Position numbers and translations under genes: made by a program
Notes under the pieces: model-generated
Database searches by the model: none
Told to the model about the DNA's origin: nothing
Seen by the model: the letters and a program-made list of their open reading frames with translations, nothing else
Shown: positions 5,688 through 28,170 of the stretch, piece by piece
How the letters are laid out: each line of letters opens with the position of its first letter
Numbering within the stretch: position 1 is the first letter of the stretch
From: an uncultured Candidatus Saccharibacteria bacterium
Lineage (GTDB): Bacteria > Patescibacteriota > Minisyncoccia > Phycocordibacterales > UBA2100
Length of the DNA stretch: 64,000 nt
Direction of reading: 5' to 3'
Assembly: GCA_964437185.1 (NCBI GenBank)
Contig: CAYTFU010000001.1
Span: forward strand, 26,304-90,303

Positions 5688-8540
5688 TTATATCGGCACA
5701 CACGTGCCATTCACCTTCACAAATCCTGCAGCACAGTTTTCTTCAAACGTTGGTAGCACATTGACCGTGGACGATCGCGAGACACTCGAAGGAGTCGAGC
5801 CTGGAAGGCCCTGACAGACGATGGTGAAGACTGTCTGAGACGCGATGGGCGAGCTCGTCTTTGCTCCCGTCGGAGTGCTCCACACACCCGTGGCATTGCT
5901 GCCCGTTCCATCGCCGTTGGTCGCCGTCACGCTGCATGACGAAACATTGCTTGCGGTCCAGAAAACATTTACGGACGTGCCGACGCGTACGAGGAGCGGG
6001 ATAACGCTCCACGAAGTGATGGCGGGAGCGGCGGTACCTATGCATCCACCGACAGAACAACCATTCGTACACATCTGAACGAGCGCACCCGTACAACTAT
6101 TGACGACATTGTTGCCCGAACATACGTTCGTGCATGATAGCGGCGGCACGCAGAGACTCGTACTCGGGTCGAGAGTCCATAGAGTGGGGCAACCGATGAA
6201 CGTGCACACGCCGGGTGATGTTTCAGTATATCCGGAGGGGCATCCCATAAACTGACATGAATTTCCGACAAATATGGATCCGATTGGGCAGTCGATTATC
6301 GGCACACAGACGCCGCCCACAAGGGTGTACCCAGGAAAACACGACGTCGGTACACACTGACCATTCACGTCGCGTGACTCACCTACTGGACATTGTGGAA
6401 CACACCCAGAAAGCGTGCTACCCGGGGTGCAGCCATTGGGAAGACATTCGCCATTGGTCATAAGTGTGGTTCCAGACGGGCATGATCCCTGACACTCTGG
6501 AAGTGTGCTGCCGGGAGAGCAGAATGTGATGCTAGAGGCCACAACGTCTATCCACGCGGAACAGTTATTGTCCTCGTTTGAACCCTCATTGATCGCCCCG
6601 AGGTCGGTCGCCGAACTTTTGTCAGCACATGCGCGCACAGAGTACGAGCCAGCCGTCAAAAAAGTGTGTGTCGCAGTAATCGGACTACTTGCGCCTGCTG
6701 CGAGCGCGGAGAAATGAATCGCTGGCGTAAGATCCACAATGGTACCGGTTCCTCCAGCGCCACCCGCAACCTGGAAGAAGTTGTTGAAGCCAACACCTAT
6801 GGATACAGGACCCCTATTCATTATAGTGGCAGACAAGGTAAACGGAGCATTGATAGTGGCACTGCCGGGACTTGTATTTACCGCGGTAAGATCGGGCAGA
6901 TTGTCGACACAAGAGCCACTCTGAAGCACTTGTCCTGCCGGACAAGCCGTGGGCACACACACACCGTCCAGCAAGACCTGACCGGTCGGACACGACACCA
7001 CAGGCACATTAACATTCACCCACTCACTGCAGTTGTTGTTTTCATACGCACCCTCGTTGATGGTACCGGCGTCTGTGGAGGAGCTCTTGTCGGCGCACGC
7101 TCGCGTGGAGTATGTGCCGCCTGCGGTAAAGGTGTGTGGAAGAGATATATCGTTGCTCGTGCCTCCTCTCAGGGATGAGAGAGAAACAGCGGGAGTGAGA
7201 TCGGTGATGGTACCTCCGCCGTTTGCTTCTGATGCGACCTGGAAGAAGTTGTAGAAGCTGATCCAACTCCCCGTTGAGCCAACGCCCGCGTTGGTAATGA
7301 TGGCGGAGAGCGTGGTCGCAACGTCGACCGTGGCGGACGTCGGGCTCGTGTTGAGTGCGGTGAGGTCGGGGCCGAGGGTGCCGCCAGTGTTGTAGAACGT
7401 GCAGGAGACGATGTTGTCTTGGTTCAACTTCACGCCGCCGATGATGCCGTCGACGATGGTGCCGGTGAGCGTTCCGTTGTCGGTTGCGCCCGTGCAGGAA
7501 GCGCCGAGGATGGTGTGGCCGCTCTGCTGGATTTCTTCAACAGACCATGGGCCGAAACCGCTGACTCTGAAAGGCTCCGTGTAGCCTAGGAAGTCGGTGG
7601 TTTTCGAGACGCCGGCGACCGTGAAATCCCACCCAGAGGCTGGAGCCTGATCGTTGGTTGTGCCCAAGTTGCCATCGACGTCGTAGATCTTCTTGACGGT
7701 GATGGTGCCTCCGCATTGCTCACGTGCGATGCTCGCCAAGTCAGTAGCGAGCGTGCTGAAGTTTGAGGAGAATACGCTGTTGGGACTTGCGATTGCCTGG
7801 AGGTTCGCCGCATCGAGACCGCTGCCGATGCCGATGGCGAGGATGCGTGTTCCCGATGACTTGATGGAGTTGGCGACCGTCACTGCTGCTGAGACTGCGG
7901 TGCTCTCGCTCACGCTCGTGTACCCACCGGTCCCATTATTAATCGTGTTTGGGTTGCCGTCGGAGGCGAATATGACGAGGTTGTTGGCTGAGGGACGGGG
8001 GTCGAAGGTGCTCTGCGAAGCGAGGAGTGCGCCCTGCCAGTTGGTGCTCCCTGATCCGTCGATGGCATCGATCTCGGAATTTACCCGCGAAAGATCATTT
8101 CCGTAGGGTAGGAACTGGAGACGGACTGTTGCTGTGTTATCGAACTTCACGAGCGAAAAGAGCGTGGGGGTTTCTGGGAGGAGTGCGCTTGTGAATCCCT
8201 TCAACGCAGACTTCATCTGAGAGAGTTCCGTGTTATCGATTGATCCCGAGACGTCCATCACGAGCGAGACGTCGAGACCGCAGGTGCCCTCGACAGGCAA
8301 GCTACACTGCCCCGCGTAGTCGGCATCGGATGGGCATGATGCGGGGACGATCTGGAGGCCGGAGTGCGAGGCGTCGGTGAATTGGACTTCGGAGGATGTA
8401 AAAGGCTTCGATGAAACTTGTGTAAAAGCTCCACTCAATATAAGTGCGGCCGCAAGCAAAGCGCCGACCACAAATACACCCTGCCATAGGTCTGCAGGAG
8501 CTACCGAGTCATCCTCACGTCGCCTCTTAGGAGCTACCAT
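5688..8540 (-). CDS. giant membrane-anchored surface protein: vWA domain, CnaB-like segment, two CARDB-like repeats and a Cys-rich C-terminal module
   Basis: 950 aa with an N-terminal transmembrane anchor. vWA MIDAS residues are present (DVSGS...T...ASDGNPN). TITVKKIYDVDGN...GWDFTV resembles a CnaB-type fold. Two tandem CARDB-like domains of about 120 aa (NTSP[TG]SAT...ACADKSS). Then a series of C.PG.TL..G.CVP repeats. Confidence 0.7.
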   Translation of the reverse strand: MVAPKRRREDDSVAPADLWQGVFVVGALLAAALILSGAFTQVSSKPFTSSEVQFTDASHSGLQIVPASCPSDADYAGQCSLPVEGTCGLDVSLVMDVSGSIDNTELSQMKSALKGFTSALLPETPTLFSLVKFDNTATVRLQFLPYGNDLSRVNSEIDAIDGSGSTNWQGALLASQSTFDPRPSANNLVIFASDGNPNTINNGTGGYTSVSESTAVSAAVTVANSIKSSGTRILAIGIGSGLDAANLQAIASPNSVFSSNFSTLATDLASIAREQCGGTITVKKIYDVDGNLGTTNDQAPASGWDFTVAGVSKTTDFLGYTEPFRVSGFGPWSVEEIQQSGHTILGASCTGATDNGTLTGTIVDGIIGGVKLNQDNIVSCTFYNTGGTLGPDLTALNTSPTSATVDVATTLSAIITNAGVGSTGSWISFYNFFQVASEANGGGTITDLTPAVSLSSLRGGTSNDISLPHTFTAGGTYSTRACADKSSSTDAGTINEGAYENNNCSEWVNVNVPVVSCPTGQVLLDGVCVPTACPAGQVLQSGSCVDNLPDLTAVNTSPGSATINAPFTLSATIMNRGPVSIGVGFNNFFQVAGGAGGTGTIVDLTPAIHFSALAAGASSPITATHTFLTAGSYSVRACADKSSATDLGAINEGSNEDNNCSAWIDVVASSITFCSPGSTLPECQGSCPSGTTLMTNGECLPNGCTPGSTLSGCVPQCPVGESRDVNGQCVPTSCFPGYTLVGGVCVPIIDCPIGSIFVGNSCQFMGCPSGYTETSPGVCTFIGCPTLWTLDPSTSLCVPPLSCTNVCSGNNVVNSCTGALVQMCTNGCSVGGCIGTAAPAITSWSVIPLLVRVGTSVNVFWTASNVSSCSVTATNGDGTGSNATGVWSTPTGAKTSSPIASQTVFTIVCQGLPGSTPSSVSRSSTVNVLPTFEENCAAGFVKVNGTCVPI
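6545..7367. repeat. intragenic tandem duplication (two CARDB-like domain copies) inside the 950-aa gene
   Basis: Protein segments aa ~392-513 and ~550-665 are about 60% identical. Off-frame ORFs at 6505..6717 and 7033..7254 share SVAELLSAHAR.EY, which shows the similarity holds at nucleotide level. Confidence 0.6.
7002..8396. repeat. copy A of a ~1.39 kb direct repeat (5' coding region of the vWA adhesin paralogues)
   Basis: aa 49-513 of the 950-aa protein are near-identical to aa 46-509 of the 1186-aa protein. Off-frame ORFs at 7693..8106 vs 27332..27757 and 7033..7254 vs 26621..27034 are almost identical, so nucleotide identity is high. Confidence 0.8.
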
Positions 8541-8647
8541 ATATATTTATATAATACCGCGCTTTAAGAGACTAATGCTCCGGGGGTGTGTATACCATGC
8601 TCAGGCAAACACCTCCTAGCGCAGGTCGTCAAAAAATCCACATACAA

Positions 8648-9502: not shown

Positions 9503-9532
9503 TCAATCCGATCATCGCTAACAATGATCGCG

Positions 9533-10630: not shown

Positions 10631-10664
10631 TCGTCCTTTAATGCACGATTCCGTATTGCATATG

Positions 10665-10952: not shown

Positions 10953-11039
10953 GCAGGATTATTCTCTCATAAAATTGACATCCGAGACGCAAATCCTGTG
11001 GACAAGTAACGAGAACCGGGTCCGTCTGCAGCCCTAGGG

Positions 11040-11045: not shown

Positions 11046-11051
11046 GCCCTC

Positions 11052-12491
11052 ATGATTTTTGACGGCATCCCCTTTTCCCACCTCTACCAACACAAAAAAG
11101 ATGGGCTCCACCGACGGGTCGTCCCCTTCATTCGATTCCTTGAACAGCGGCTCAATGTCTCGGTATTGGCAGATCGAAAAGATTTTCCGTACGAGCGTCC
11201 TGACCTCGCAGAGCAATTCTCCCTCGCGCATATCCTGAAACAAAAGGGGATCATTAAGTCATTTAGACCTCAACAAGCGCTGTGCGACGAGCCTCCCATA
11301 AAATCTTGGATGTGCGAGTACACATCCCCCATTCGGTCTGTTACTGCTGGCGCATCCATAGACAGCGATGAGGACGCGCTAACTGCGGCTCTTGCTGAAG
11401 GGCTTGAGCGATACATCTGGATTACGCAGGATGACTATTTCAAGCGCCCGATCCGAGCATCGGTACAAAAAATCGCCTCTTATGGAAAATATATAGATCC
11501 GCGACAATTTGTGTCATTCTCAGAAGCACAACGAAAGGCTGATTCCAAACTGACGATAAAGGAAGACTCGACCTACATGTGGATTCGGGCACGTTCTCAT
11601 ACCGACAACAAAACTGTGTACGTTCCAGCGCAAACGATAAGCTCTGCATGGCGCCCATTACAACAAACCCCCGCAGAGCCCTTGATACGTCAACAATCAA
11701 CCATAGGACTGGCTACCTGGCCGACACACAAAGGGGCCATCCTCGCGGGTGCCCTCGAAGTGATCGAGCGCGAGGCATACGCCATTATGTGGTTTAATCA
11801 ACTCACCGTACCGCGAATATTGCTTCTCCCACTTCAGGAGGAAAATGCCCCCCTCAACGCGCTGGTAAAAAAATGCGAGCAATATCAGCTGCGCGTACAC
11901 GCCCTTCAAATGCCCACCGACGCGCCCGCTCACGCCATCGCAGCCATACTCGAGGATATCTCTGGGCACGCGCCTCGTTTTGCTATAGGCCTCAAGGCGC
12001 ACCGCTCATTGCCACAGGCTATAGAAGGAGCGATCTTGGAAGCACTGCGTGCTCGGCGCGGAGCGCGAAAATTCGTCGCCACTGGTCCATGGGACGGAAC
12101 CACGCCCATTGAAAAAATCGGCCATCGCGAACGTCTACACTATTGGGCAGATCCCAAAAACTCCGAGCGTCTCTCTTTCTTAATTGGGGGTGCTGAATTT
12201 GATTACACAAAAACACCCTGGGAAAATGATACTGAGACAGAGCACCTCAATCGAGTACTCGATTGGTGTAGGGCCAATGATTTCACCTGCGCCTCTGTGT
12301 CGCTCGGAGACTCAAAGGCCAACCCAACGCCTTGGTATATTGAAATGGTCGTGATACCAGAATTGCACCCAATACATTTGACTGAGCCCATGAGACACCT
12401 CGGTGGCATGAGGTTGAAAAACGTACCTAGACAATTGGGATTCACTCCTCGTGATACCCCCTTTATTGACGCTCCGCACCCCTATACATAA
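11052..12491 (+). CDS. ycaO: YcaO-domain protein (ATP-dependent cyclodehydratase / amide-activating enzyme)
   Basis: SPIRSVTAGASIDSDEDALTAALAEGLERY closely matches the E. coli YcaO ATP-binding region (KGATK..ALASALGEYFERL). The second motif IGLATWPTHKGAILAGALEVIEREAY matches SNGLA.GNT..EA...GL.EVIERD. The C-terminus is Pro-rich (DAPHPYT). Confidence 0.8.
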   Translation: MIFDGIPFSHLYQHKKDGLHRRVVPFIRFLEQRLNVSVLADRKDFPYERPDLAEQFSLAHILKQKGIIKSFRPQQALCDEPPIKSWMCEYTSPIRSVTAGASIDSDEDALTAALAEGLERYIWITQDDYFKRPIRASVQKIASYGKYIDPRQFVSFSEAQRKADSKLTIKEDSTYMWIRARSHTDNKTVYVPAQTISSAWRPLQQTPAEPLIRQQSTIGLATWPTHKGAILAGALEVIEREAYAIMWFNQLTVPRILLLPLQEENAPLNALVKKCEQYQLRVHALQMPTDAPAHAIAAILEDISGHAPRFAIGLKAHRSLPQAIEGAILEALRARRGARKFVATGPWDGTTPIEKIGHRERLHYWADPKNSERLSFLIGGAEFDYTKTPWENDTETEHLNRVLDWCRANDFTCASVSLGDSKANPTPWYIEMVVIPELHPIHLTEPMRHLGGMRLKNVPRQLGFTPRDTPFIDAPHPYT

Positions 12492-12496
12492 AAACC

Positions 12497-13213
12497 ATGA
12501 CTTTATTTATCTCACACATCCATTCCGAGATACGGCGAGCGCGCACTACGAAGCGGGGTGCTACGCATAGCGCGAGAGATGTTCCGAGGGGTACGCACAA
12601 GGAATACGCACGCATGCAGAAGGTTGCCCTTCCTCCACCGAACCCAATACTTGCTCCATTCGGCGAGGTGATACATACAAGGACTTCCTACCGCAATTGC
12701 ACGCACGGCCAGGACGCTGCCATACCCATCGAGACATTAAGTACACTTTTGGGATCAGCACTCAAAAAGCGAGCCGAAGCTTCGAATAGAAACTACCCTT
12801 CGGGAGGAGCACTATATCCGGTCGAGACCTATTTGATCACCGAGGCACTCGACGGATTCGGACCAACCGTATTTCACTACAATCCCACGCACCACGAGCT
12901 TGAAACATTGTGGCCGCTCTCCTCCCGTCTCACCCTCAAAGACCTGGCTCGAAAACCGGATGATCTTCATTTTTCATCGCTCATAGTTTTTACAAGCGTG
13001 TGGAAGCGCTCTTCGGCAAAGTATGGAGACCTTGCCTACACGCACGCACTTCTTGAAGCCGGACATATGTCTGAGAACATACTTCTCACGGCAACTGCCC
13101 TCAACCTTCTCACACGACCAATGGCTGGCTTTTCTGATGAAAAGATAATTGAGATTTTAGATCTGGACCCCGAGGAAGAGCAGCCGATACATACCATCGT
13201 ACTGTGCCGATGA
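12497..13213 (+). CDS. SagB-type (nitroreductase-fold, FMN) dehydrogenase
   Basis: Shows RTSYRNC...PIETLSTLLGSAL and the diagnostic PSGGALYPVETYL, as in the PSAGGLYP motif of TOMM dehydrogenases. The likely start is the internal MQKVALPP at 12614. It lies 6 nt downstream of ycaO and its end overlaps the next gene. Confidence 0.65.
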   Translation: MTLFISHIHSEIRRARTTKRGATHSARDVPRGTHKEYARMQKVALPPPNPILAPFGEVIHTRTSYRNCTHGQDAAIPIETLSTLLGSALKKRAEASNRNYPSGGALYPVETYLITEALDGFGPTVFHYNPTHHELETLWPLSSRLTLKDLARKPDDLHFSSLIVFTSVWKRSSAKYGDLAYTHALLEAGHMSENILLTATALNLLTRPMAGFSDEKIIEILDLDPEEEQPIHTIVLCR

Positions 13214-14862
13214 CTACCACTATGGACTTACGTGCAGAATTACGCGATGCCATAGCCGCCCAAGCATTCGTGCGCGCCTCCGCCCATACGCGCATAATTG
13301 GCGGGGACGAAAAATCCTTGGACTCTTGGATTTTTGACTTCCGAGCGCTCCTCTTGCAGCCCCGATGGCTCAATACCTACGCGGAGATCTTCTGGGATAC
13401 GCATAAAAACCTGTACCCATTCCAGGTCTGTGGAATGGAGAGTGCTGCAATATCTCTGGTCGCCGCCATCGTTATGAAAGGCACAGAACGCGGGACGCCC
13501 GTAAATGGTATCTACATACGCAAATCACGGAAGAGAACGGGCCTTTTACGACAAATTGAAGGTACCCCAAACGACAAGAAGGTTATTTTGGTCGACGACC
13601 TCATCAATTCGGGAAGCACCTTCAAAAAACAAATCGACATCCTATCGCGAAGCCATCTCTCCGTTGCGCATATTTTTGCCCTCCTCGCATTTCGTCCAAT
13701 AGAGGAGTACGGCGCTCTCACATCTCAAGGCATTTCCATCACACACCTATTCACCTTGCAGGATTTCAATCTGCCCCCCGTCAAAAACAAGAAAAACACG
13801 CCGATACAAAACACCTTCGAGACCTTGTGGCACTTCGAAGCTCCCAACCCAAGCTACAGCCTGGTGGTACAAAAGTCCGCACCCGCGATCGACGAGGATA
13901 CCGTCTATTTCGGAAGCGATGCTGGCATTTTCTATGCGCTGGACCAAAAAACCGGAGATATTCGCTGGTCGTTTCGCATCGGAAAATTCCCCGAAAACAA
14001 AGGCATACTTTCGTCCCCAGCACTCCATAATGACCGAGTGTTTTTTGGCGCATATGACGGCACTGTATACGCACTCAAATCCGACACGGGTGCCGTGGCG
14101 TGGAAATATAGCGATGCCGATTGGGTCGGCTCGTCGCCCTGCATTGCGTCAAATCTTAACCTTCTATTTGTCGGACTGGAATTTGGCCTCTGGAACAAGC
14201 GTGGCGGAATCGTGGCCCTCAACATTGAAACCGGCAGTGAGGTTTGGCGACAAAAAATGCCGACACTTACACACTGCTCTCCACTGTATATACCGGAAGA
14301 GAATATGGTGGTCGTGGGGAGCAATAATGCAACAATCTACGCGTACGAGGCTAACACCGGTACGCCGCTATGGCATTGTTATGTCGTCGGTGACGCGAAA
14401 GCTTCATTTGTGTACGATAAATCACGGCGGTGTATTTTATTTGGGACAGTGAACGGACAATTTTACGCAATCTCCGCTCAGAACGGCAACCCACTGTTTA
14501 GTAAAGAAATAACGGGGGGTATGTACTCGACCCCGACTATTGACGGCGACACGACTTACGTCGCGTCCCTCGATAAGTGCATATACGCCATCGACATGAA
14601 CACGTGGACCGATCGCTGGACGTTTGAGACAGGCGGGCGGATCTTTGCCTCGCCCATAGTACTAAATGGACATGTGTGGATCGGCTCAAACGACGGAAAA
14701 CTATATGAGATTAACGCGGCGAGCGGCAAGCTAAAAAGTTTTTTCCAAGCAACCGAGAGGATAGTTAACAGAATTGCCCATAATGAAAAGACGGGGGTAT
14801 ACTTCGTGCCAACGCAGGCAAATGAGATGTATTGCCTTCGCAAGATTCCTACGGTGGTATAA
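13204..14862 (+). CDS. fusion protein: type I phosphoribosyltransferase (OPRTase-like) domain plus PQQ-type beta-propeller
   Basis: The N-terminal ~200 aa carry KKVILVDDLINSGSTF, the PRPP-binding loop, and an OPRT-like F.F..L.. element. The C-terminal ~350 aa carry about 7 PQQ/BamB-like blades (TVYFGSDAGIFYALDQKTGDIRWSF, GTVYALKSDTGAVAWKY ...). Its start overlaps the SagB stop, suggesting translational coupling. Confidence 0.6.
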   Translation: MPMTTTMDLRAELRDAIAAQAFVRASAHTRIIGGDEKSLDSWIFDFRALLLQPRWLNTYAEIFWDTHKNLYPFQVCGMESAAISLVAAIVMKGTERGTPVNGIYIRKSRKRTGLLRQIEGTPNDKKVILVDDLINSGSTFKKQIDILSRSHLSVAHIFALLAFRPIEEYGALTSQGISITHLFTLQDFNLPPVKNKKNTPIQNTFETLWHFEAPNPSYSLVVQKSAPAIDEDTVYFGSDAGIFYALDQKTGDIRWSFRIGKFPENKGILSSPALHNDRVFFGAYDGTVYALKSDTGAVAWKYSDADWVGSSPCIASNLNLLFVGLEFGLWNKRGGIVALNIETGSEVWRQKMPTLTHCSPLYIPEENMVVVGSNNATIYAYEANTGTPLWHCYVVGDAKASFVYDKSRRCILFGTVNGQFYAISAQNGNPLFSKEITGGMYSTPTIDGDTTYVASLDKCIYAIDMNTWTDRWTFETGGRIFASPIVLNGHVWIGSNDGKLYEINAASGKLKSFFQATERIVNRIAHNEKTGVYFVPTQANEMYCLRKIPTVV

Positions 14863-14870
14863 TTTGTACG

Positions 14871-16280
14871 ATGCTGCTGCAGCTACAAAGTCTCCTGCGC
14901 AAGACACAAATTGCTTTAGCTCCTACACTCAAAGCATACAAGCGAATCTTCAGACTCCACGAGATCGAGGAGTCGCTCGTGCTTAAGTCATCGCTCGGAG
15001 CGATTCTCTTTTTCTTTTTCCTCACGTTCCAAATGTGGATGCGCTCTAGCTCCACGACATTAAGCACGGCAGCGGCAGGAAAAGCTGTGTGCTGGCCCTA
15101 TTTTCAAAATTGTTCAGATCTCTACTTCCTAGAAACATTCCCGAGCAGCTATTCTCAGTCTCTATGGTACATGGTTCTGTTTGGAATAATGCTCTCGGTC
15201 GCTTACGCCATGTGGCGGAAACACTGGACCGTCGCACACCTTCTACTGGTACCGCTCCTCCTGTGGAAGGTGTTTTCGATATTTGTGCTGAGTTATACGA
15301 TGAACGGCCCATACGATTACTACCACGTCGTCTTTACGGTCATTTTCCTATTTCTACCCTACAAAGAATATTTTTTGAAGCTCGCGGTAGTCATTCTCTA
15401 TTTCTTGTCGGCAACGATCAAACTTCATTCGACATGGGTTCTTGGTACGTATTTCTCGGCCCTACAAACCGGCCTCCCCCTCTTCCCCGATTCACTCATC
15501 CCTCTTGCTACTAATCTCGTTATATTTGAACAAATTGTCGGTGCATGGTTTCTACTTTCCAGAAATCTGCTCTGGCAGCGAATATCGCTTGCGTTCTTGA
15601 TATTCTTTCATCTCTATTCCGGAATTTTTGTCTACTATCACTATCCATCGGTTATTCTTCCGCTTCTTATCATCCTTTTTGGTCCTCTTTATACATACAC
15701 GTCGCCACCCACGGACCGGAAATCAATTCCGAGTTGGATATTTGTGCTGATGGTTATGCTCTTCCAGGTCCCTGGACTTATCATCCCCTCACCTGGTGAT
15801 CGACGGATGACACTCGAAGGCAACCGCTACGGAATGTTTATGTTCGAGGCAAATCATCAATGCATTGCAACTATTACGACCGTACGCAATGATCGCGCTG
15901 TCGCTGGGACCATCGATAAGCCGATTACCGAATCACCCTTCTCTTGCGGAAGATTTTATTGTGTCACCCGAAAAACTCAGTACCAAAACGGCGCAAATGC
16001 CGTCACGACGACACGGCATGAGGCGGCAAGTGCCTGGAATCGGTGCGACCCACACACATTTTGGTCCCAGTACCACACTCAGTGCGATAGGGACGCCGGG
16101 ATTGTTCGCATTGGAATGACCTTCGACCATTCGATCAATGGTGGTCCATTCTATCGAATCGTCGATACCTCGAACATATGCGATTTGTCATACTCCGCTG
16201 CTTCACACAATGAATGGATAGCCGTCCCACCCGCGGCGAAAATCGTGGGATACCCTGTTAAAAATTTCTATCAATTTTGA
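14871..16280 (+). CDS. polytopic membrane protein, paralogue 1 (possibly HTTM / vitamin-K-carboxylase-like fold) with Cys-containing C-terminal domain
   Basis: About 8-9 predicted TM helices. It is a paralogue of the gene at 19326..20732 (shared RLHEIE, LEGNxYGM/LFMFEANHQCI, RCDP, FDHSINGG). The track start 14832 overlaps the upstream gene; MLLQLQ at 14871 is the likely start. Confidence 0.4.
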   Translation: MLLQLQSLLRKTQIALAPTLKAYKRIFRLHEIEESLVLKSSLGAILFFFFLTFQMWMRSSSTTLSTAAAGKAVCWPYFQNCSDLYFLETFPSSYSQSLWYMVLFGIMLSVAYAMWRKHWTVAHLLLVPLLLWKVFSIFVLSYTMNGPYDYYHVVFTVIFLFLPYKEYFLKLAVVILYFLSATIKLHSTWVLGTYFSALQTGLPLFPDSLIPLATNLVIFEQIVGAWFLLSRNLLWQRISLAFLIFFHLYSGIFVYYHYPSVILPLLIILFGPLYTYTSPPTDRKSIPSWIFVLMVMLFQVPGLIIPSPGDRRMTLEGNRYGMFMFEANHQCIATITTVRNDRAVAGTIDKPITESPFSCGRFYCVTRKTQYQNGANAVTTTRHEAASAWNRCDPHTFWSQYHTQCDRDAGIVRIGMTFDHSINGGPFYRIVDTSNICDLSYSAASHNEWIAVPPAAKIVGYPVKNFYQF

Positions 16281-16558
16281 TATGGAACCAGCAACGACCA
16301 CAAACCTCATCGTGCTCAAACAGCTCGCAGGCAACGACCCTGTGACGCTCTACCCAATACAGATCATGATGGAACCGCATGTCGATCTAATCATCGCTGC
16401 CTGGACCGCCCTGTGGTTTACCACACTGACTATAGTGCTCTACAAACTCTTTCGAGAGTGGCGAAAGCGGCATTCGTAGGGCTCTCGCGCAGCTGCGATC
16501 CGCATCGTTTTCAGCACCCCCATCCATGGGTGCCAAAATGCCCAAAAGCGTTGATTAG

Positions 16559-18852: not shown

Positions 18853-19233
18853 TTACATCATCTTTACATCGATGGAGACGCCAGATGGGAGATCGATATT
18901 GGTGAGCGCTTCGATGACCTTGGGCTCGGGATTCATGATATCGATCATGCGCTTGTGGATGCGCATCTCAAACTGCTCTCGGGAGTCTTTGTCGATGAAA
19001 GCTGCACGGTTGACCGTGTATTTCTTGATATCGATGGGGAGCGGAACGGGACCAATAACCTCGGCATTGTGACGGGCGGCGACGTCGATGATTTGCTTCG
19101 TCGCTCCGTCGAGCACTCCGTGCTCATAGGCGCGCACGCGAATGCGCAAACGACTCGGCCCTGCCGATTTCTTTGCCCCACGAGAAGCTCGCGCCTTCGC
19201 AGGGGCCTTGGTAACCTTCGATTCCGCTGTCAT
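18853..19233 (-). CDS. rpsJ: 30S ribosomal protein S10, displaced from rplC, with N-terminal extension
   Basis: RLRIRVRAYEHGVLDGATKQIIDVAARHNAEVIGPVPLPIDIKKYTVNRAAFIDKDSREQFEMRIHKRMIDIMNPEPKVIEALTNIDLPSGVSIDVK aligns along the whole of E. coli S10. The ORF extends to 19290 with about 45 extra residues; the start at 19233 (MTAESK) is more likely. Confidence 0.85.
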   Translation of the reverse strand: MTAESKVTKAPAKARASRGAKKSAGPSRLRIRVRAYEHGVLDGATKQIIDVAARHNAEVIGPVPLPIDIKKYTVNRAAFIDKDSREQFEMRIHKRMIDIMNPEPKVIEALTNIDLPSGVSIDVKMM

Positions 19234-19325: not shown

Positions 19326-20732
19326 ATGCAAAAGAGCTTATTAAGGGGGTACCACCGCCTCTTTGCTCTCCACGAGATCGAGACGAGCGAGATCCTACAG
19401 CTACTCTATTATGTAGTTAGTTTCTCATTCTTTGTCACCTTTTTTCTCTGGATTGAAAGAAGCGTCATTAGTATCTCAACATTCCAAAGTGGCGGGCACG
19501 TCTGCCCCCCATACCTTCCATCGTGCGGTGAATATTACTTCCTGCAAGCCCTCCCATACGGATACACGCAGAGCGCATTTTACGTATTTCTCTTTCTAGT
19601 CTTGGGGTATGGAGTGTACTCCGCATACCGTAAAAACTGGGTGGCCGCTCACGGCGCACTCTTAGTCTGCCTCGTATGGAAAGTGGTTTTGGGATTTTTT
19701 CTCACCTATGGCGTACTAGGAAATTTCGACTATTACGACATGATCCTCGCCAGCGTATGGCTCTTTATGCGAGAAAAAGAATACTTCGCAAAAATCACTT
19801 TTGTATTTCTGTACGTACTCGCATCTTCTATCAAAATCGACGGAGGGTGGATTTTTGCCAACTACTTCAACTCCCTTTTCACAGGAGCCCCAATCTTTGC
19901 GGCCCCGTATTTGCCTTTCTTTACAAACATTCTCATTGCGATGCAAATGATCGGAAGCTGGTTCTTGCTTTCGAGTAACAGCAAACTGCAGAAGGCAGCA
20001 TTCTTTTATTTTTTACTCTTCCACGCGTATTCAGGGATTATCGTCAACTACCGCTATATTGCTATCTCAATACCCGCGTTATTCGTCCTGTTCTCACAAC
20101 CCGGCCACTTTCAAATACAAAAGGTCTCCAAAACCACCCTTCTCGGGTACGGTTTTCTATTCTTACTCATCTGCGGACAACTTATCGGAATTCTCACGCC
20201 AGGTGATCAGAAAAAAACCCTCGAGGGCAATTACTATGGCCTGTATATGTTTGAAGCAAACCATCAGTGCATCTCGGAAACCACTACCTATCGCAAAGAC
20301 GCAGAGCCTGTCGTAACAAGCCGTGAAAATCATGTCGCCAACAATCGCTGCGATCCGTACCGCTACTGGTTCCCGCTTAAGACCCTCTGCACTCGCGATA
20401 GCATCATCGAGAGAATCGCATGGACGTTTGACCACTCAATCAACGGTGGCGCGTACGAACGCATCGTAGACGTGGAAGACGCGTGCGCGCTTACCTATCG
20501 GGCAATCGGCCACAATGACTGGATACAAATCGACAAGCCTGAGTTTTTGGGTACCCCTGTGTATAAAACGGGCTTCGGATACAACCTCAACTCTCAGATA
20601 AAAGTCCCTCCCGAGATAATTATTGACGATCCGTTGCTCGAAAAGATCAAGCTGGCCTATTGGATTCTCTGGTCGGCGTCCCTGGCTTTTGCGTGCGGCG
20701 CACTAATATACGTACACCTGAGAAAACGTTGA
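19326..20732 (+). CDS. polytopic membrane protein, paralogue 2 of 14871..16280
   Basis: Same architecture and motifs (ALHEIETSE, LEGNYYGLYMFEANHQCI, RCDPYRYW, FDHSINGG) plus an extra C-terminal TM helix. The ORF track starts at 19248; it is divergent from rpsJ. Confidence 0.4.
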   Translation: MQKSLLRGYHRLFALHEIETSEILQLLYYVVSFSFFVTFFLWIERSVISISTFQSGGHVCPPYLPSCGEYYFLQALPYGYTQSAFYVFLFLVLGYGVYSAYRKNWVAAHGALLVCLVWKVVLGFFLTYGVLGNFDYYDMILASVWLFMREKEYFAKITFVFLYVLASSIKIDGGWIFANYFNSLFTGAPIFAAPYLPFFTNILIAMQMIGSWFLLSSNSKLQKAAFFYFLLFHAYSGIIVNYRYIAISIPALFVLFSQPGHFQIQKVSKTTLLGYGFLFLLICGQLIGILTPGDQKKTLEGNYYGLYMFEANHQCISETTTYRKDAEPVVTSRENHVANNRCDPYRYWFPLKTLCTRDSIIERIAWTFDHSINGGAYERIVDVEDACALTYRAIGHNDWIQIDKPEFLGTPVYKTGFGYNLNSQIKVPPEIIIDDPLLEKIKLAYWILWSASLAFACGALIYVHLRKR

Positions 20733-22315: not shown

Positions 22316-22411
22316 GCAAAACTAAATTAGAAACTGTTAGTCTTGTCATGGTACCACATAAGAATCTGCGACTGTGATTGCACTGCAACACATACGTGTT
22401 ACAATAGTCCC

Positions 22412-22690
22412 ATGGCTAAGACGGGGTACGTAAATGTACGGATGGAGAAGAGGCTCAAGGCAGAAGCCGAGAAGGTTCTTCGAGAAGTCGGTGTGAATGC
22501 GTCGGACGCCCTCACTATGTTTTATAAGCAGGTCGTTATTCAGCAGGGTCTGCCCTTCGAAGTATGCACTCGATCGCACATACCCAACGCGACAACTCGT
22601 CGAGCACTTGCCGCGCTCGAACGCGGTGCGGGCCGCACCTACAAGGGAACCACCACAGATATTTTCGACGCGATACTCAAGGATAAGTAG
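22412..22690 (+). CDS. dinJ: DinJ/RelB-family antitoxin
   Basis: MAKTGYVNVRMEKRLKAEAEKVLREVGVNASDALTMFYKQVVIQQGLPFEV matches the DinJ N-terminal ribbon-helix-helix. The ORF track starts upstream at 22343. Confidence 0.7.
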   Translation: MAKTGYVNVRMEKRLKAEAEKVLREVGVNASDALTMFYKQVVIQQGLPFEVCTRSHIPNATTRRALAALERGAGRTYKGTTTDIFDAILKDK

Positions 22691-22705
22691 AATTATTTTT
22701 CCGTC

Positions 22706-22974
22706 ATGAAGGATCTCCGCTTTGACGGGTCATTTAAGCGAGATCTGAAAAGAATCGCAAGGCGAGGCTGGAGCATCGAAAAATTAGACAATATCGTTAC
22801 CCTCTTGCGCACAGCGAGCCCTCTCCCTTCAGCCGCTCGCACGCACAAACTCGGTGGCATGTACGCTGGAAAATGGAGTGCCACGTCGAGTCTGATTGGG
22901 TGCTTATCTACGATTTCACGGAGACGGTACTTCGGCTTGCTCGTACTGGCACGCACGCCGATCTATTTGAATAA
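22706..22974 (+). pseudogene. yafQ: YafQ/RelE-family toxin gene disrupted by a -1 frameshift near 22855
   Basis: Frame 1 gives MKDLRFDGSFKRDLKRI...THKLGGMYAGKW, the YafQ N-terminus. From about 22860 the alternative frame reads ECHVESDWVLIYDFTETVLRLARTGTHADLFE*, the canonical YafQ C-terminus, ending at the TAA at 22972-22974. The annotated ORF instead runs on to 23104 in the wrong frame. Confidence 0.65.
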
Positions 22975-23110
22975 AGTGTACCGTCTCAGCAACAAAGAAA
23001 ACCCGCATCCGTCTATAAGCGGAGCGGGTTTTCTTTGTTATTTCTTAGAGAAGAAATTACGCAACTACCTTGGTGACTACTCCTCAGGATGTTTTATGCG
23101 GTAATCCGCA

Positions 23111-23148
23111 GAAAACTTCGGATGCCGCATTCGCAAAGCGAATGCGGC
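23111..23148 (-). terminator. hairpin downstream of tuf (11-bp perfect stem gccgcattcgc/aaa/gcgaatgcggc) with a weak U-run
   Basis: Seen directly; the U-tract (guuuucu) is 8 nt beyond the stem, so a Rho-independent function is plausible but not canonical. Confidence 0.4.
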
Positions 23149-23158
23149 GAGCACCGAC

Positions 23159-24358
23159 CTATGCAACAACCTTTGTTACAACTCCTGCTCCGACCGTCTT
23201 ACCACCCTCGCGAATAGCAAAACGCATCTGGTCTTCGAGAGCAATCGGTGCCACGAGCTTCACCTTGAACGTAACGGTGTCGCCCGGCATCACCATCTCG
23301 ACTCCCTCTTTGAGAGTCACTTCGCCCGTCACGTCCGTGGTGCGGACGTAGAACTGTGGCTTGTACCCAGTGAAGAATGGCGTGTGACGGCCACCCTCCT
23401 CCTTGGTCAAGATGTAGACCTCAGACTCAAATTCGGTGTGAGGCTTCACGCTCGCTGGCTTGCAGAGCACTTGGCCGCGGTGCACGTCTTCTTTCTTCGT
23501 ACCTCGCAAAAGCACACCGGCGTTGTCGCCTGCCTGACCTTGGCTTAGGGATTTGTTGAACATTTCCACGCCGGTGACTGTCGTCTTCGCCGTATCCTTG
23601 ATACCGACGATTTCGATTTCTTCACCCACCTTTACAACACCGCGTTCGATGCGGCCCGTGACGACGGTGCCTCGACCTTCGATCGAGAACACGTCTTCAA
23701 TTGGCATGAGGAACGGCTTGTCGAGATCACGTACCGGCTGTGGGATGTACTCATCGAGCGCCTTTACGAGCTCCATGACCTTGTCGCTCCATTCATTTCC
23801 CGGAGCTGGATTCTCAAGTGCCTTCAAGCCCGAACCGCGAATGATCGGTGTGTTCTTGCCGTCGAAGCCCTGCTTCTCAAGCAATTCACGAACCTCTTCT
23901 TCGACGAGATCGATGAGATCCTTGTCGTCTACCTGGTCGACTTTGTTGAGAAAGACGATCAACTTCTTCACGCCCACCTGATTGGCAAGGAGTACGTGTT
24001 CACGTGTCTGAGGCATCACACCATCGGACGCTGCGACCACGAGGATAGCGCCGTCCATCTGCGCTGCGCCCGTGATCATGTTTTTGATGTAATCGGCGTG
24101 ACCAGGGGCGTCGACGTGTGCGTAGTGACGAGCTGGTGTCTCGTACTCAGAGTGCGAGAGTGAGATCGTAATACCGCGCGCCTTCTCTTCTGGTGCCTTG
24201 TCGATGTCATCGACTCCCTTCACTGTCGCGGTGTATCCATTGCCGGCCTTTGAGAGGACGGTGAGGATGGCCGCGGTGAGCGTGGTCTTGCCGTGATCAA
24301 CGTGACCAATGGTCCCGACGTTGACGTGCGGCTTGCTTCGATTAAATTCTTCTGCCAT
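23159..24358 (-). CDS. tuf: elongation factor Tu
   Basis: 399 aa with [21 protein letters not shown] and the full EF-Tu domain II/III sequence. Confidence 0.95.
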
Positions 24359-24609
24359 ACCATTTTTCTTTTACTCTTATGTCGCTAGGGACTAGCTAAC
24401 AACACTACTAATATGTGTGTAACGCCAACGCGAGGTGGAGCGAATGCTCCGGTGTCCAGCTGTGATTTTCTGCCTCACGTGCATCTACTTCCGTTCCCTG
24501 AGGAGACGGGCGGGTCGCTACGCCGCGATACAAAATGGAGCAAAAGAATACGCACTGGACGTGCGTTGCACCATAGTATCAAAGTCGTTCGGAGCGTCAA
24601 GTTTTTTGC

Positions 24610-27600
24610 CTATCGCGCTTCTTGGAAAGTCGGCACGATTGACACGGTTGCACTGCCTGTGAATGTTGAGCCGTCCAGTCCTACACATGAAAGATTGAAC
24701 ACCGTTCGCTGATTGATCGCGGGCGTCGCTTGGCCGCCCGCGACGTTTGTCGCTCCCACCCACGATCCAATATCTGGCGAGCTCGTGACGGAACACGATG
24801 AGACGTTTGCCATATTCCAATAGAGTTTTGTGGACACCCCCGGACGCACGATGGAGGGGAACACCTGCAAATTGCCGGTGAGTGTGCTCGATGGAGTGGG
24901 CGTCGGCGGCGGATACAGACACACTGACGATCCAGGAGAGCAAAATCCGGGAGAAACACACGTCGTTACGTTTGAAATGATACAGGACGCGTTCTTATAC
25001 TGAATCGTATTTCCACTACAACTGTAAACTGGCGCGCATGTGACATCGAGAGTCGCTGGGCTAAACGAGCCGATACCAGAGGGGCCGGTAATGCTACCCG
25101 TGTAGGTCGTTGAGTAAGAAGGCGTGACAACTACTGACCCATCGGCGCTGGAGCCTGTAAGAAATAGAGTGGGTCCTGTCGTTGCGGTGCTTGCGTAGAT
25201 TGTCCAGCTTGCGCCCCCAATATTTGTCCACGAAAGTGTGGCGCTGCCTCCTTGAGATATTGTGGACGGGGTAAGGGTGAATGTGCCTGATGGAGGGTTC
25301 ACGGTGAGTATCGCGGGGCAGCTCGTACTAAGAGGCAAAGATGGACTATAGGTAACTACGATAATACCTTGTGCACCTGTACCAGGACTTGTACCCGCGG
25401 CGCCTCCACCTCCCCCATATAAACCTCCGTCCCCAGTACCACCACCGCCGGAGCCACCTCCCGGACCGGCAGTCGCGCCGCCAGCGGTTTGGGTCCAAAT
25501 AGTACCAGCACCTCCATATCCCCCCGCAGCATAACTGCCACTATTGAAACCCCCGCCCCCACCACCACCCACAGTACCATTGGTCGCCACCGACGATCCG
25601 GTCGCTCCGGTACCAGCACCAGCGCCCGATCCGTTTGCACCACCATTCCCTCCATCGGTATCTCCCGCTGCACCTGCATTCCCAGGGCCAGCAAGTGTAG
25701 ATGCGCCACCCCCGCCGCCTTTCGCGTAATCGGTGGTCGCCGAACCATTTCCGCCTACACCACCCACACCACCGGGCCCGGCTGCGCCGCCGCCTCCAGC
25801 GCGCCGCTGCGTACCGCCACCATCCGCTCCACCTTTACCACCTGAATATTTCACCGAACCTATTCCTTGAGCCGACGCGCCTCCGGGGCCGCCACCCGTC
25901 GTGCCCGCTTCACCTCCCTTCGCTAACACACCGTTTGTCGTGCTCGTAGGGGGCGCGCTTACATCTTTGTTGATCCACGAATCGCCGCCTCCGATACCTG
26001 ACGCACCTCCTGACCCAACCTTCACATAAATAGTCTGACCGGGCGAGAGAGATAGATCTGAGTGGGTGATCTTCGAATACGCGCCTCCGCCTCCACCATC
26101 GCTTCCGAATTCACCTCCTCCTCCCCCGCCTATAACCTCAATCTTCCATGGAGGGAAAAAGTCGGCGGGTGCTATCCACGATGTAGCAGTTGTATCGGTG
26201 AGAAAAATAACTTTCTGAGCTCCGCTTGCGGCGGCCTCAACTGTACCAGTGTAGTCGGTGGTCGATACCGGTGACACTGCTACGGATCCTGGAGAGGCGA
26301 CCGATACGTTTCCATGATTCGCGATTGTAAAAGAGGAAGCCCCGGAAGATGTGTAATTAAGGTTGGTCGTCTGTGTTGGATTAATGGGATTCGAATCAAA
26401 AGATATCGAACACGAAAGCACATTGAGGGTCACTGTGCACGTACTATCTCCTCCCGGTCCGCTGACCGATCCAATATATGTCGTGCTCACGCCGGGAACA
26501 ACTGAAGTGGATCCCGAAAGGGACACCGCACCGACACCGCTAATACTCATTGCGGTCGCGTTGGTCGAGGACCACGTCAGCGTGCTCGATTGAGAGCCTA
26601 CTACGGAATCTGGGCTGAGATTGACAGAGCACGAGGGTGGAGGAAAAGGAACATTCACATTCACCCACTCACTACAATTGTTGCCCTCATTCGCGCCCTC
26701 GTTGATGATCCCGGCATCTGTGGAGGAACTCTTGTCGGCACACGCTCGAGTTGAGTATGTGCCCCCTGCGGTAAAGGTGTGTGGGAGCGATATGGTATTG
26801 CTCGTGCCTCCTCTCAGGGATGAGAGAGAAACAGCGGGAGTGAGATCAGTAATGGTACCTCCGCCGTTTGCTGCGGACGCGACTTGGAAGAAGTTGGGGA
26901 AGCTGATCCCCGTTGAGCCAACGCCCGCGTTGGTAATGATGGCGGTGAGCGTGGTCGCAACGTCGATCGTGGCGGACGTCGGGCTCGTATTGAGCGCGGT
27001 GAGGTCGGGGCCGAGGGTGCCGCCGGTGTTGTAGAACACGCAGGAGACGATGTTGTCTTGGTTCAACTGAATGCCACCGATAATGCCATTGACGATACTA
27101 CCGGAGAGCGTGCCGTTGTCGGTTGCGCCCGTACATGAGGCGCCGAGGATGGTGTGGCCGCTCTGCTGAATTTCTTCAACGGACCATGGGCCGAAGCCGC
27201 TCACCTTGAAAGGCTCGGTGTAGCCCAGGAAGTCGGTGGTTTGCGAGACGCCCGCGACCGTGAAGTCCCATCCAGAGGCTGGAGCTTGGTCGTTGGTTGT
27301 GCCTAGATTGCCATCGACGTCGTAGATCTTCTTGACGGTGATGGTGCCTCCACACTGCTCGCGTGCGATGCTCGCTAAGTCAGTAGCGAGCGTGCTGAAG
27401 TTCGACAAGAACACGCTGTTGGGACTCGCGATTGCTTGGAGGTTCGCCGCATCGAGACCGTTGCCGATGCCGATGGCGAGGATGCGTGTTCCCGATGACT
27501 TGATGGAGTTGGCGACCGTCACGGCTGCTGAGACTGCGGTGCTTTCGCTCACGCTCGTGTATCCACCGGTCGCATTATTAATCGTGTTTGGGTTGCCGTC

Positions 27601-28170
27601 GGAGGCGAATATCACGAGGTTGTTGGCAGCGGGGCGAGGGTCGAAGGTGCTCTGTGAAGCGAGGAGTGCGCCCTGCCAGTTGGTGCTCCCTGATCCGTCG
27701 ATGGATGAAATGGTCGAATTTACCGATGTGAGATTGTTTCCATTGGGAAAGAACTGAGAACGCACGACCGCGAGATTGTCAAAGCTAACGACCGAAAACA
27801 GCGTGGGGGTTTCTGGGAGGAGTGCGCTTACAAATGATTGCAGAGCAGTCTTCATCTGAGAGAGTTCCGTGTTATCGATTGATCCCGAGACGTCCATCAC
27901 GAGCGAGACGTCGAGACCACAGGTGCCATCGACAGGGAGGCTGCACTGTCCGGCGTAGTCTGGAGACGAAGGGCACGACGCGGGGATGATCTGGAGGCCG
28001 GAGTGCGAGGCGTCGGTAAATTTCACCTCCGAAGAAACAAATCCCTGTTGGCCTGAATAATTCGCCAGTACAGAAAGTATGCCGAGCACACAAACGAATA
28101 CGATAAGCGCGGCTCGAAATCCATCGAGGTCATACGAACGACAGAGGGCCATGAGGCGTTTTATATTCAT
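24610..28170 (-). CDS. giant surface protein paralogue (vWA, CnaB-like and CARDB-like domains), with a ~330-aa glycine-rich low-complexity region and Ig-like C-terminal domains
   Basis: 1186 aa. aa 46-509 are near-identical to the 950-aa protein. A unique middle region (aa ~690-1020) is about 50% Gly (GGGGGGEFGSDGGGGGAYSKI ... GIIVVTYSP) without G-X-Y periodicity. Its start lies 10 nt after the stop of the upstream gene 28181..28657. Confidence 0.7.
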   Translation of the reverse strand: MNIKRLMALCRSYDLDGFRAALIVFVCVLGILSVLANYSGQQGFVSSEVKFTDASHSGLQIIPASCPSSPDYAGQCSLPVDGTCGLDVSLVMDVSGSIDNTELSQMKTALQSFVSALLPETPTLFSVVSFDNLAVVRSQFFPNGNNLTSVNSTISSIDGSGSTNWQGALLASQSTFDPRPAANNLVIFASDGNPNTINNATGGYTSVSESTAVSAAVTVANSIKSSGTRILAIGIGNGLDAANLQAIASPNSVFLSNFSTLATDLASIAREQCGGTITVKKIYDVDGNLGTTNDQAPASGWDFTVAGVSQTTDFLGYTEPFKVSGFGPWSVEEIQQSGHTILGASCTGATDNGTLSGSIVNGIIGGIQLNQDNIVSCVFYNTGGTLGPDLTALNTSPTSATIDVATTLTAIITNAGVGSTGISFPNFFQVASAANGGGTITDLTPAVSLSSLRGGTSNTISLPHTFTAGGTYSTRACADKSSSTDAGIINEGANEGNNCSEWVNVNVPFPPPSCSVNLSPDSVVGSQSSTLTWSSTNATAMSISGVGAVSLSGSTSVVPGVSTTYIGSVSGPGGDSTCTVTLNVLSCSISFDSNPINPTQTTNLNYTSSGASSFTIANHGNVSVASPGSVAVSPVSTTDYTGTVEAAASGAQKVIFLTDTTATSWIAPADFFPPWKIEVIGGGGGGEFGSDGGGGGAYSKITHSDLSLSPGQTIYVKVGSGGASGIGGGDSWINKDVSAPPTSTTNGVLAKGGEAGTTGGGPGGASAQGIGSVKYSGGKGGADGGGTQRRAGGGGAAGPGGVGGVGGNGSATTDYAKGGGGGASTLAGPGNAGAAGDTDGGNGGANGSGAGAGTGATGSSVATNGTVGGGGGGGFNSGSYAAGGYGGAGTIWTQTAGGATAGPGGGSGGGGTGDGGLYGGGGGAAGTSPGTGAQGIIVVTYSPSLPLSTSCPAILTVNPPSGTFTLTPSTISQGGSATLSWTNIGGASWTIYASTATTGPTLFLTGSSADGSVVVTPSYSTTYTGSITGPSGIGSFSPATLDVTCAPVYSCSGNTIQYKNASCIISNVTTCVSPGFCSPGSSVCLYPPPTPTPSSTLTGNLQVFPSIVRPGVSTKLYWNMANVSSCSVTSSPDIGSWVGATNVAGGQATPAINQRTVFNLSCVGLDGSTFTGSATVSIVPTFQEAR
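26644..28035. repeat. copy B of the ~1.39 kb direct repeat (see 7002..8396)
   Basis: Same evidence as copy A. The copies are about 19.6 kb apart in direct orientation and bracket rpsJ, tuf and about 15 other genes. Confidence 0.8.

Follow-up and report, generated by a model that had tools for sequence, protein, structure and literature searches.

The window analysed here, a stretch of 64,000 nt from the 226-kb contig CAYTFU010000001.1 (assembly GCA_964437185.1), carries two giant surface-protein genes, which we call adhesin A and adhesin B, with a direct repeat of 1.39 kb in their 5' parts. Between the two repeat copies lie the translation genes tuf and rpsJ, together with a YcaO cluster. A preliminary description of this DNA had read the arrangement as a cassette-like device for antigenic or phase variation. 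The features that bear on this question are as follows.

5688..8540, minus strand: adhesin A gene, 950 aa, with a transmembrane (TM) anchor, the shared head, a Cys-rich linker, a second CARDB domain, Cys-rich repeats and a C-terminal domain of ~95 aa ending in PTFEE
6534..6796, minus strand: segment of the second CARDB of adhesin A, which repeats the shared CARDB within the gene at 60% nt identity (61% aa in blastp)
7002..8383, minus strand: repeat copy 1, the head block of adhesin A (codons ~52-513), 88.5% identical to copy 2
7806..7958, minus strand (partner about 27445-27597 in gene B): low-divergence tract, A codons 195-245, from windowed Nei-Gojobori (NG86) estimates of synonymous substitutions per site (dS)
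18853..19233/19290, minus strand: rpsJ (S10), Pfam Ribosomal_S10 with E 1e-29, 126 aa in locus L002; within the bracketed interval
23159..24358, minus strand: tuf (EF-Tu, 399 aa), Pfam GTP_EFTU, D2 and D3; within the bracketed interval
24610..28170, minus strand: adhesin B gene, 1186 aa, with a different TM anchor, the shared head, Ig-like repeats, a Gly-rich domain, further Ig-like repeats and a C-terminal domain ending in PTFQE
26647..28022, minus strand: repeat copy 2, the head block of adhesin B (codons ~49-508)

The layout given in the preliminary description is borne out by blastn, by the list of open reading frames (ORFs) and by the coordinates: the repeat occupies the 5' parts of the ORFs of 950 and 1186 aa, and tuf, rpsJ and the YcaO cluster lie between copies spaced 19.64 kb apart. 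In the self-comparison the two copies (7002-8383 and 26647-28022) start 19,639-19,645 nt from each other, and their blastn alignment covers 1387 columns with 88.5% identity, 143 mismatches and 11 gap openings (1666 bits, E = 0), a similarity far beyond chance. The repeat search recovered it in pieces (7002-7264/26647-26909, 7268-7567/26907-27206 and 8077-8376/27716-28015) with 81-91% identity. The copies are, however, far from the almost identical nucleotide sequences that had been claimed. The codon alignment comprises 467 codons with one 2-codon indel and has 87.9% nt identity; 170 of the 1401 aligned sites differ, distributed as 8% of first, 5% of second and 23% of third codon positions. 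Nei-Gojobori estimates are dS = 0.39 and dN = 0.064 (nonsynonymous substitutions per site), giving dN/dS = 0.16. As to whether many synonymous differences would deprive recombination of its substrate, the outcome is intermediate: synonymous differences number 106, yet twelve perfect runs of 29-69 nt persist, the longest being 69 (at 27850-27918), 61, 50, 49 and 47 nt. The copies are a diverged paralogous block evolving under purifying selection.

Both ends of the block are sharp and coincide with domain borders. Inside it, 30-codon windows are 80-98% identical; past codon 514 (A)/509 (B) identity drops within a few codons to about 40%, and before codon ~60 it is about 60%. Identity between A and B begins at codon ~45-52, and the N-terminal anchors (about aa 1-44) cannot be aligned, in agreement with the earlier statement that the anchors differ. 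The accompanying statement, that identity reaches slightly beyond the upstream end of the shared coding region, is true inside the ORFs only, from that same codon on; upstream of the two start codons no sequence is shared. In 30-codon windows, identity is 10-47% for the tails of A and B, versus 90% aa and 88% nt identity for the head block. GC content is 0.56-0.58 throughout both genes. Divergence within the block is uneven. At A codons 195-245, dS is 0.08, against 0.17-1.16 in the other windows, with 3 synonymous differences where about 12 are expected; this is possibly a later short conversion tract, although support for it is modest. The most divergent stretch, A codons 125-165, holds 13 aa changes; it belongs to the VWA domain and immediately precedes the conserved GSGSTNW loop. 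Positive selection on this stretch was considered and rejected, since dN/dS there is only about 0.25.

Both adhesin genes are complete: each has an ATG and an N-terminal anchor of its own, and the regions upstream of them are distinct. Their N-termini consist of basic residues followed by one hydrophobic helix, an arrangement that predicts an extracellular topology for the remainder of each protein. The head has the same order in both: a post-anchor Cys motif (SSEVxFTDASHSGLQIxPASCPSxxDYAGQC), a VWA domain, a prealbumin-like beta-sandwich and one CARDB. The VWA domain (Pfam PF00092) is recognized with E 6e-15 in A and E 7e-14 in B (56 and 53 bits versus a cut-off of 23.8), and the D-x-S-x-S...T...D pattern of the metal ion-dependent adhesion site (MIDAS) is complete in both copies (DVSGS, GSGSTNW, FASDGNPN), with T and D assigned by sequence position. 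The sandwich domain has a weak match to the prealbumin-like SpaA_4 family (E 9.5e-4). CARDB (PF07705) is found in two copies in adhesin A (52.6 bits versus a cut-off of 22.7, E 6e-14), whereas the adhesin B copy, which is 93% identical to CARDB-1 of A, scores 19 bits and stays under the cut-off. An AlphaFold model of the head block, built from a 33-sequence alignment, reaches a predicted local distance difference test (pLDDT) score above 85 over most of residues 41-340, that is, over the VWA and sandwich domains. When this model was compared with the PDB using Foldseek, MIDAS-type VWA domains ranked at the top, with E-values down to 2e-13 (PTMP1, TRAP, vWF-A3 and integrin I domains), and the bacterial adhesins Mfa5, SpaC, LapA-vWFA and an Aeromonas adhesin vWFA were matched as well. 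By its domain content, the head likely functions in metal-ion-dependent binding of a host-cell or substrate ligand and would be displayed on two different stalks.

The tails are not as wholly different as had been described. The last ~90-100 aa of A and B are homologous (42% identity), and the second CARDB of A is 61% identical to the shared one. Apart from this, the tail of A is characterized by Cys-rich repeats of the CPxGQxLxxGxC type. The two proteins end in ...VPTFQEAR and ...LPTFEENCAAGFVKVNGTCVPI, each directly followed by the stop, and have neither the LPXTG motif nor the hydrophobic tail of sortase-anchored proteins. Pfam and NCBIfam searches with the tails gave no match for the Ig-like repeats, the Gly-rich domain or the C-terminal domain, though Gly_rich_2 is recorded for proteins of relatives.

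The EF-Tu and EF-G proteins of the window fall in 90% clusters named Candidatus Kaiserbacteria/Paceibacterota, by which the organism can be taken for a Candidatus Kaiserbacteria bacterium of the candidate phyla radiation (CPR/Patescibacteria). We compared its adhesin genes and their neighbours with related loci (L012/L014, L015 from GCA_964424265.1, L021 and L024). The following features have counterparts in these relatives.

5160..5675, minus strand: small membrane protein, 171 aa, downstream of adhesin A; 54% identical to the 154-aa protein found in the same place in L015
8648..9439, minus strand: TPR protein upstream of adhesin A; 59% identical to the TPR protein upstream of the L015 ortholog
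28181..28657, minus strand: cupredoxin-like membrane protein, 158 aa, a partner of B-type surface proteins; its stop codon lies 10 nt before the adhesin B start
5688-5990 and 24610-24900 in the window, 9210-9512 in L012, 7390-7690 in L015, also present in L024: P-x-F-x-E domain, at or near the C-terminus

The slot of adhesin A is recognizable in L015, where the order is TPR protein, a 2027-aa protein, the 154-aa protein and rplC. VWA is lacking from the 2027-aa protein, which combines two Gly-rich heads with several CARDB domains, Cys-rich repeats and the C-terminal domain. The tail of adhesin A matches it with E 1e-96, and the first CARDB of A is nearest to its first CARDB (66%). Within the L015 gene itself (1607-7690), pairs of CARDB repeats are 91-92% identical to each other and the Gly-rich head is duplicated; the CARDB pairs show recent internal amplification of modules in this surface-protein family. 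Counterparts of adhesin B are found elsewhere. In L012/L014 the gap between fusA and tuf holds a cupredoxin-like protein of 154 aa, 42% identical to the 158-aa protein of the window and in the same position, along with a 630-aa surface protein (L012_630) with the post-anchor motif, an Ig-like repeat and the C-terminal domain of adhesin B, without VWA or CARDB. In the co-occurring relative L021, a cupredoxin-like gene is followed by a protein (L021_531p) with an anchor, the SSEV motif, an FN3-like module, Ig-like repeats and a Gly-rich domain, again without VWA; its Ig-like and Gly-rich part is 52% identical to adhesin B (Ig-like repeats against B 511-751). The tail of adhesin B matches L012_630, L021_531p and L024_850. 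The ~95-aa C-terminal domain (W-N-x-x-N-V-S-S-C-[ST]-V-T ... V-x-P-x-F-x-E) recurs in each of the six giant surface proteins that were compared, where it may serve as a signal for sorting or attachment. In this domain, A is 57% identical to the L015 protein versus 42% to B, and the closest sequence to B is L024_850 (50%).

A cupredoxin-like gene stands directly upstream of a giant surface-protein gene in the window (28181-28657), in L012 (7151-7615), in L021 (10001-10348) and twice in L024 (7240-7719 and 10001-10474), which carries the pair in tandem; some homologs are annotated as 'plastocyanin' by JGI. These positions suggest that the cupredoxin-like gene and the giant surface protein constitute a conserved two-gene cassette.

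The head behaves differently from the tails. A search of 5.8 billion proteins for closer relatives of the head gave, as the best outside match, at most 54% identity over about 65% of the query. Among GTDB genomes the head block had a single 38% match, confined to CARDB, in a Saccharibacteria metagenome-assembled genome, and among JGI metagenomes none. Thus, the heads are 90% identical to each other and at most 54% identical to any other protein, whereas the tails are closer to proteins of other genomes. Both signs of module transfer are seen, namely, a more similar block with sharp edges and flanks that are closer to their counterparts in other genomes. Judged by this similarity pattern, the two adhesin loci evidently recombined in the past.

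The repeat and the order of genes around it recur in independent assemblies. We reached the same strain by exact-protein look-up in five MEGAHIT contigs (from ERZ27247817/820/828/830/837) and four Logan contigs (from ERR3094293-96); the nine come from about ten sample accessions, agree with the window at 99.8-100% identity and have the same arrangement throughout. A 22-kb MEGAHIT contig (ERZ27247837:k141_2551212), also 99.8-100% identical, joins in one unbroken piece the Gly-rich part of adhesin B, tuf, rpsJ, the YcaO cluster, the TPR gene, adhesin A, rplC and rplD. Contigs of ERZ27247828, ERZ27247830 and ERZ27247820 run with 99.98-100% identity from the upstream genes through the 158-aa gene and the entire B copy into B-specific sequence. 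All repeat junctions are crossed by the five independent MEGAHIT contigs, and the four Logan contigs add the junction entering gene B. The latter end at window position 27889, 30 nt into the 69-nt perfect run, as is expected when a k = 31 graph branches at a true repeat. No hybrid A/B junction and no deletion junction occurs among the nine contigs. The exact adhesin A protein is present on 4 contigs in public assemblies; a look-up of the exact adhesin B protein gave no record. Other assemblies break in its Gly-rich region, and the junctions of adhesin B were therefore confirmed via the adjoining 158-aa gene and tuf. At 25504-25580, within the Gly-rich region, several assemblies break or diverge, with 20 mismatches in the first 77 nt of L002. 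The part of adhesin B that is hard to assemble is the Gly-rich region, not the 1.39-kb repeat. A separate peculiarity concerns tuf: contig k141_2551212, otherwise identical over 12 kb, carries four clustered synonymous changes within 22 nt (23681-23702), which mark either a short tract recombined in from a related tuf allele or a merge by the assembler with a co-occurring relative.

We regard it as probable that the repeat is the shared extracellular head of a stable pair of intact paralogs, left by an old block transfer, and not a phase-variation device. The two loci would already have been older paralogs when one of them received the head block from the other, through non-reciprocal recombination, gene conversion or duplication of a module-sized segment, because the tails are older and closer to other genomes while the head is shared only within this genome. 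After the transfer the copies would have diverged by 12% (~0.39 synonymous substitutions per site) under purifying selection, perhaps with one later short conversion tract. The shared head would accordingly be younger than the tails and the partner genes. The present-day repeat is a poor recombination substrate, though not an impossible one. In E. coli and Bacillus, about 25 nt of perfect identity are required for recombination, whose rate falls roughly log-linearly with divergence; the two copies, at 87.9% identity and dS 0.39 and with no perfect run above 69 nt, lack the homogeneous tracts of an efficient substrate. Crossover between direct repeats deletes the interval, and inversion is not an outcome, so that the inversion envisaged earlier is ruled out by the direct orientation of the copies. 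The geometry of the proposed excision is as claimed: a reciprocal crossover would remove the interval with tuf and rpsJ. S10 is essential and single-copy, and CPR genomes normally carry one tuf. The deletion product should be lethal because the interval contains both genes, and viable outcomes of exchange would be restricted to conversion or duplication products.

Several points weigh against this explanation or leave it incomplete. Cues to the direction of transfer conflict: the CARDB arrays, native to the A lineage (L015), would make A the donor, whereas the SSEV motif, seen elsewhere in the B-type proteins of L012 and L021 alone, would make B the donor; one or more events may have been involved. 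The twelve perfect runs exceed the ~25-nt minimum for RecA of E. coli, and rare exchange is possible. Stability is seen in consensus assemblies, which cannot show rare recombinant subpopulations. A second tuf or rpsJ is absent from the 64-kb window, the part of the genome covered, and the argument from lethality presumes that the two genes have no further copy. Finally, the CARDB part of the head model is of low confidence (pLDDT about 30), and both the adhesive function and the expression of the two genes are putative.

The opposite reading, in which the copies serve as an active substrate for antigenic or phase variation and C-termini are swapped or the interval deleted at a biologically relevant rate, is in our judgement quite improbable. 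In its favour are the direct orientation and the perfect runs, the mosaic dS with one tract at 0.08 that is possibly a more recent conversion, and the modular make-up of a family that shuffles domains over evolutionary time. However, a divergence of 12% (dS 0.39) indicates no ongoing homogenisation, and the logic of an expression site with silent cassettes does not apply because both copies are complete, anchored, full-length genes and there is no promoterless or truncated silent cassette. Moreover, deletion would cost the cell tuf and rpsJ, inversion is excluded by the direct orientation, and the same junctions recur at 99.8-100% identity in contigs from about ten sample accessions without a hybrid among the nine. 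The cassette-like variation system of the preliminary description is thus not upheld. The idea that the repeat is an artefact of assembly, which duplicated one gene or collapsed two strains, is effectively refuted. MEGAHIT contigs do break in the Gly-rich region of adhesin B and Logan contigs do stop inside the repeat, but three MEGAHIT contigs span the whole B copy and the 22-kb contig spans the whole A copy on to tuf, rpsJ and rplC. The Logan stops are the branching expected of k = 31 at a true repeat, and the 170 differing sites have a codon-position pattern typical of selection. Here the preliminary description, which had named such an artefact as a danger, is answered by independent contigs that cross every junction.

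Two further histories of the head deserve attention. If a whole ancestral VWA adhesin gene had been duplicated and one or both tails replaced later, the repeat would be what is left of a full-length duplication. Such a course agrees with the features common to both proteins (post-anchor motif, head and homologous C-terminal domain) and with the frequent replacement of domains in this family; we nevertheless consider it unlikely, since the anchors cannot be aligned, the C-terminal domains share no more than 42% identity and both have nearer matches in other genomes, the proteins at the corresponding positions in relatives are devoid of the VWA head, and identity falls from 80-90% to 40% within a few codons at the boundaries. 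That both genes gained the head independently from an external donor by horizontal transfer is more doubtful still and, to us, barely credible. CPR surface proteins with VWA and SpaA-like domains are widespread, and the gaps around these genes do contain cargo of a mobile type (HicAB and RelB/YafQ here, an insertion sequence (IS) element in relatives). Yet no outside protein above 54% emerged from the 5.8 billion proteins, the GTDB genomes or the JGI metagenomes, the block has identical boundaries in both copies, and GC content is even across both genes. A copying of the head block between two older paralogs remains the explanation that we prefer.

The genomic surroundings of the pair are less ordinary than the pair itself. 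The ribosomal string rpsL-rpsG...rpmC runs on the minus strand (window 91-35271) and is cut by accessory DNA at four points: between rpsG and fusA, fusA and tuf (6.4 kb), tuf and rpsJ (3.9 kb), and rpsJ and rplC (14 kb). The adhesins occupy two of the four gaps, B between fusA and tuf and A between rpsJ and rplC, in the same orientation as the ribosomal genes. The remaining features of this region are listed below.

4272..4904, minus strand: rplC, the downstream edge of the rpsJ-rplC gap, followed by rplD-rplW-rplB-rpsS-rplV-rpsC-rplP-rpmC
11052..16479, plus strand: YcaO cluster, with a SagD-type YcaO, a SagB-type dehydrogenase, a PRTase/beta-propeller fusion, a 469-aa membrane protein and a 65-aa membrane ORF
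22343..23104, plus strand: RelB/YafQ toxin-antitoxin pair, in the tuf-rpsJ gap
30762..32903, minus strand: fusA, the upstream edge of the fusA-tuf gap
32944-33503, plus strand: HicB/HicA toxin-antitoxin pair, in a gap of the ribosomal string

The rpsG-fusA gap contains a gene of 166 aa and, on the opposite strand, HicB/HicA. The fusA-tuf gap has, in order, a peptidoglycan (PG)-binding protein, proteins of 174 aa and 176 aa (the latter on the plus strand), the cupredoxin-like 158-aa protein and adhesin B. Between tuf and rpsJ lie YafQ and RelB (plus strand), YCII-like, GNAT and DUF924 proteins and a 468-aa membrane protein (plus strand), and between rpsJ and rplC a 355-aa protein, PGA_cap, the YcaO block on the plus strand, a 365-aa protein, the TPR protein, adhesin A and the 171-aa protein. 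The SagD-type YcaO matches TIGR03604 with 180 bits, under the cut-off, and the SagB-family dehydrogenase matches TIGR03605 with 108 bits versus a cut-off of 78; no precursor peptide or E1-like partner was recognized for this RiPP-like set at 11052-16479. Both type II toxin-antitoxin pairs lie on the strand opposite to the ribosomal genes. Inside the bracketed interval there is a second pair of paralogs, polytopic membrane proteins of ~469 aa that flank rpsJ (14871-16280 and 19326-20732, both plus strand); they are 38% identical over 444 aa and have no Pfam or NCBIfam match. Elsewhere in the window, a 303-nt tandem repeat with 91% identity (49171-49715) lies within a PG_binding/PKD-domain gene (48213-49832, minus strand). 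Promoter and terminator scans around both adhesin genes returned counts equal to the shuffle expectation. Two sites are recorded without weight. The spacer that separates adhesin B from tuf has a promoter-like site of the TG-extended type (24600-24573), and the one that separates the adhesin A unit from rplC has a GC-rich hairpin with a T-run (5041-5026). Neither Rfam families nor tRNA genes were found in the window.

Comparable splits occur in other Kaiserbacteria with EF-Tu at least 90% identical. There, tuf and rpsJ are about 5 kb apart with variable genes between them (GNAT, DUF924, YCII and others), rpsJ is not followed by rplC, and splits downstream of tuf are present in every relative examined. 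fusA and tuf are adjacent in some relatives and gapped in others, and an IS element lies downstream of tuf in two. A search of the literature on the structure of the ribosomal operon in Kaiserbacteria found nothing relevant. A broader scenario, which we put forward tentatively and with some doubt, is that in a clade of Kaiserbacteria the ribosomal string, contiguous as a rule, is interrupted at recurring points, and that these gaps might be long-lived landing sites for surface-protein cassettes, toxin-antitoxin pairs and the RiPP-type YcaO/SagB cluster. Head and stalk modules might move between these gaps through intragenomic recombination; the lethality of deletion would lock both paralogs in place, and new chimeras could arise through conversion or transient duplication only.

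Cassette antigenic variation by gene conversion is known from Neisseria pilE/pilS, Borrelia vlsE/vls cassettes and Mycoplasma genitalium mgpB/C-MgPar. As in these systems, segments of a surface gene are repeated at separate sites, and recombination has made a mosaic gene at least once. Unlike in them, both adhesin genes are complete, the head is conserved and the tail variable, the copies have diverged by 12%, there is no heterogeneity among assemblies and the reciprocal product should be lethal. A closer parallel in geometry is provided by tufA-tufB of Salmonella and E. coli, rrn operons and Rhs, which are likewise dispersed paralogs whose orientation sets the products of recombination and where the essential genes of the interval leave conversion and duplication as the viable outcomes. 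Copies of tufA/tufB and rrn are kept more than 99% identical by frequent conversion. By contrast, the adhesin copies are only 88% identical, so conversion between them would be rare or have stopped. In the head itself, the succession of VWA/MIDAS and beta-sandwich resembles the Gram-positive pilus tip adhesin SpaC (PDB 6m48), Mfa5 of P. gingivalis (6tnj) and the ligand-binding vWFA domains of two RTX adhesins, LapA (9no5) and the Aeromonas adhesin (9das), with Foldseek E-values of 2e-10 to 6e-10. Adhesins A and B differ from these proteins in having an N-terminal TM anchor and no LPXTG, RTX/type I secretion (T1SS) signal or pilin motif, and sequence identity is only 15-22%. According to a transposon-sequencing (Tn-seq) study of Southlakia epibionticum, extracellular adhesin-type proteins of this CPR epibiont are expected in host attachment (PMC10633639). 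The Southlakia adhesins carry VCBS, dockerin and FN3 domains and so differ in domain content from adhesins A and B.

The adhesins are ordinary paralogs in an unusual neighbourhood. A binding head shared by paralogs on different stalks and partial gene conversion between paralogs are both familiar themes. Less ordinary is a str-S10 string split by islands with surface-protein cassettes, two toxin-antitoxin pairs and a SagD/SagB-type pair; the surprise is only moderate because rpsJ is separated from rplC in other lineages too, for example, in cyanobacteria. Had a recombination switch indeed been placed around essential translation genes, that would have been notable; the claim is not supported. 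The supposedly universal ribosomal block, a syntenic marker in CPR phylogenomics, is interrupted in this lineage by up to 14 kb of accessory DNA, which matters for binning, marker extraction and expression context. Adhesins A and B are candidates for host or substrate attachment and exemplify the evolution of CPR surface proteins by exchange of modules between paralogs.

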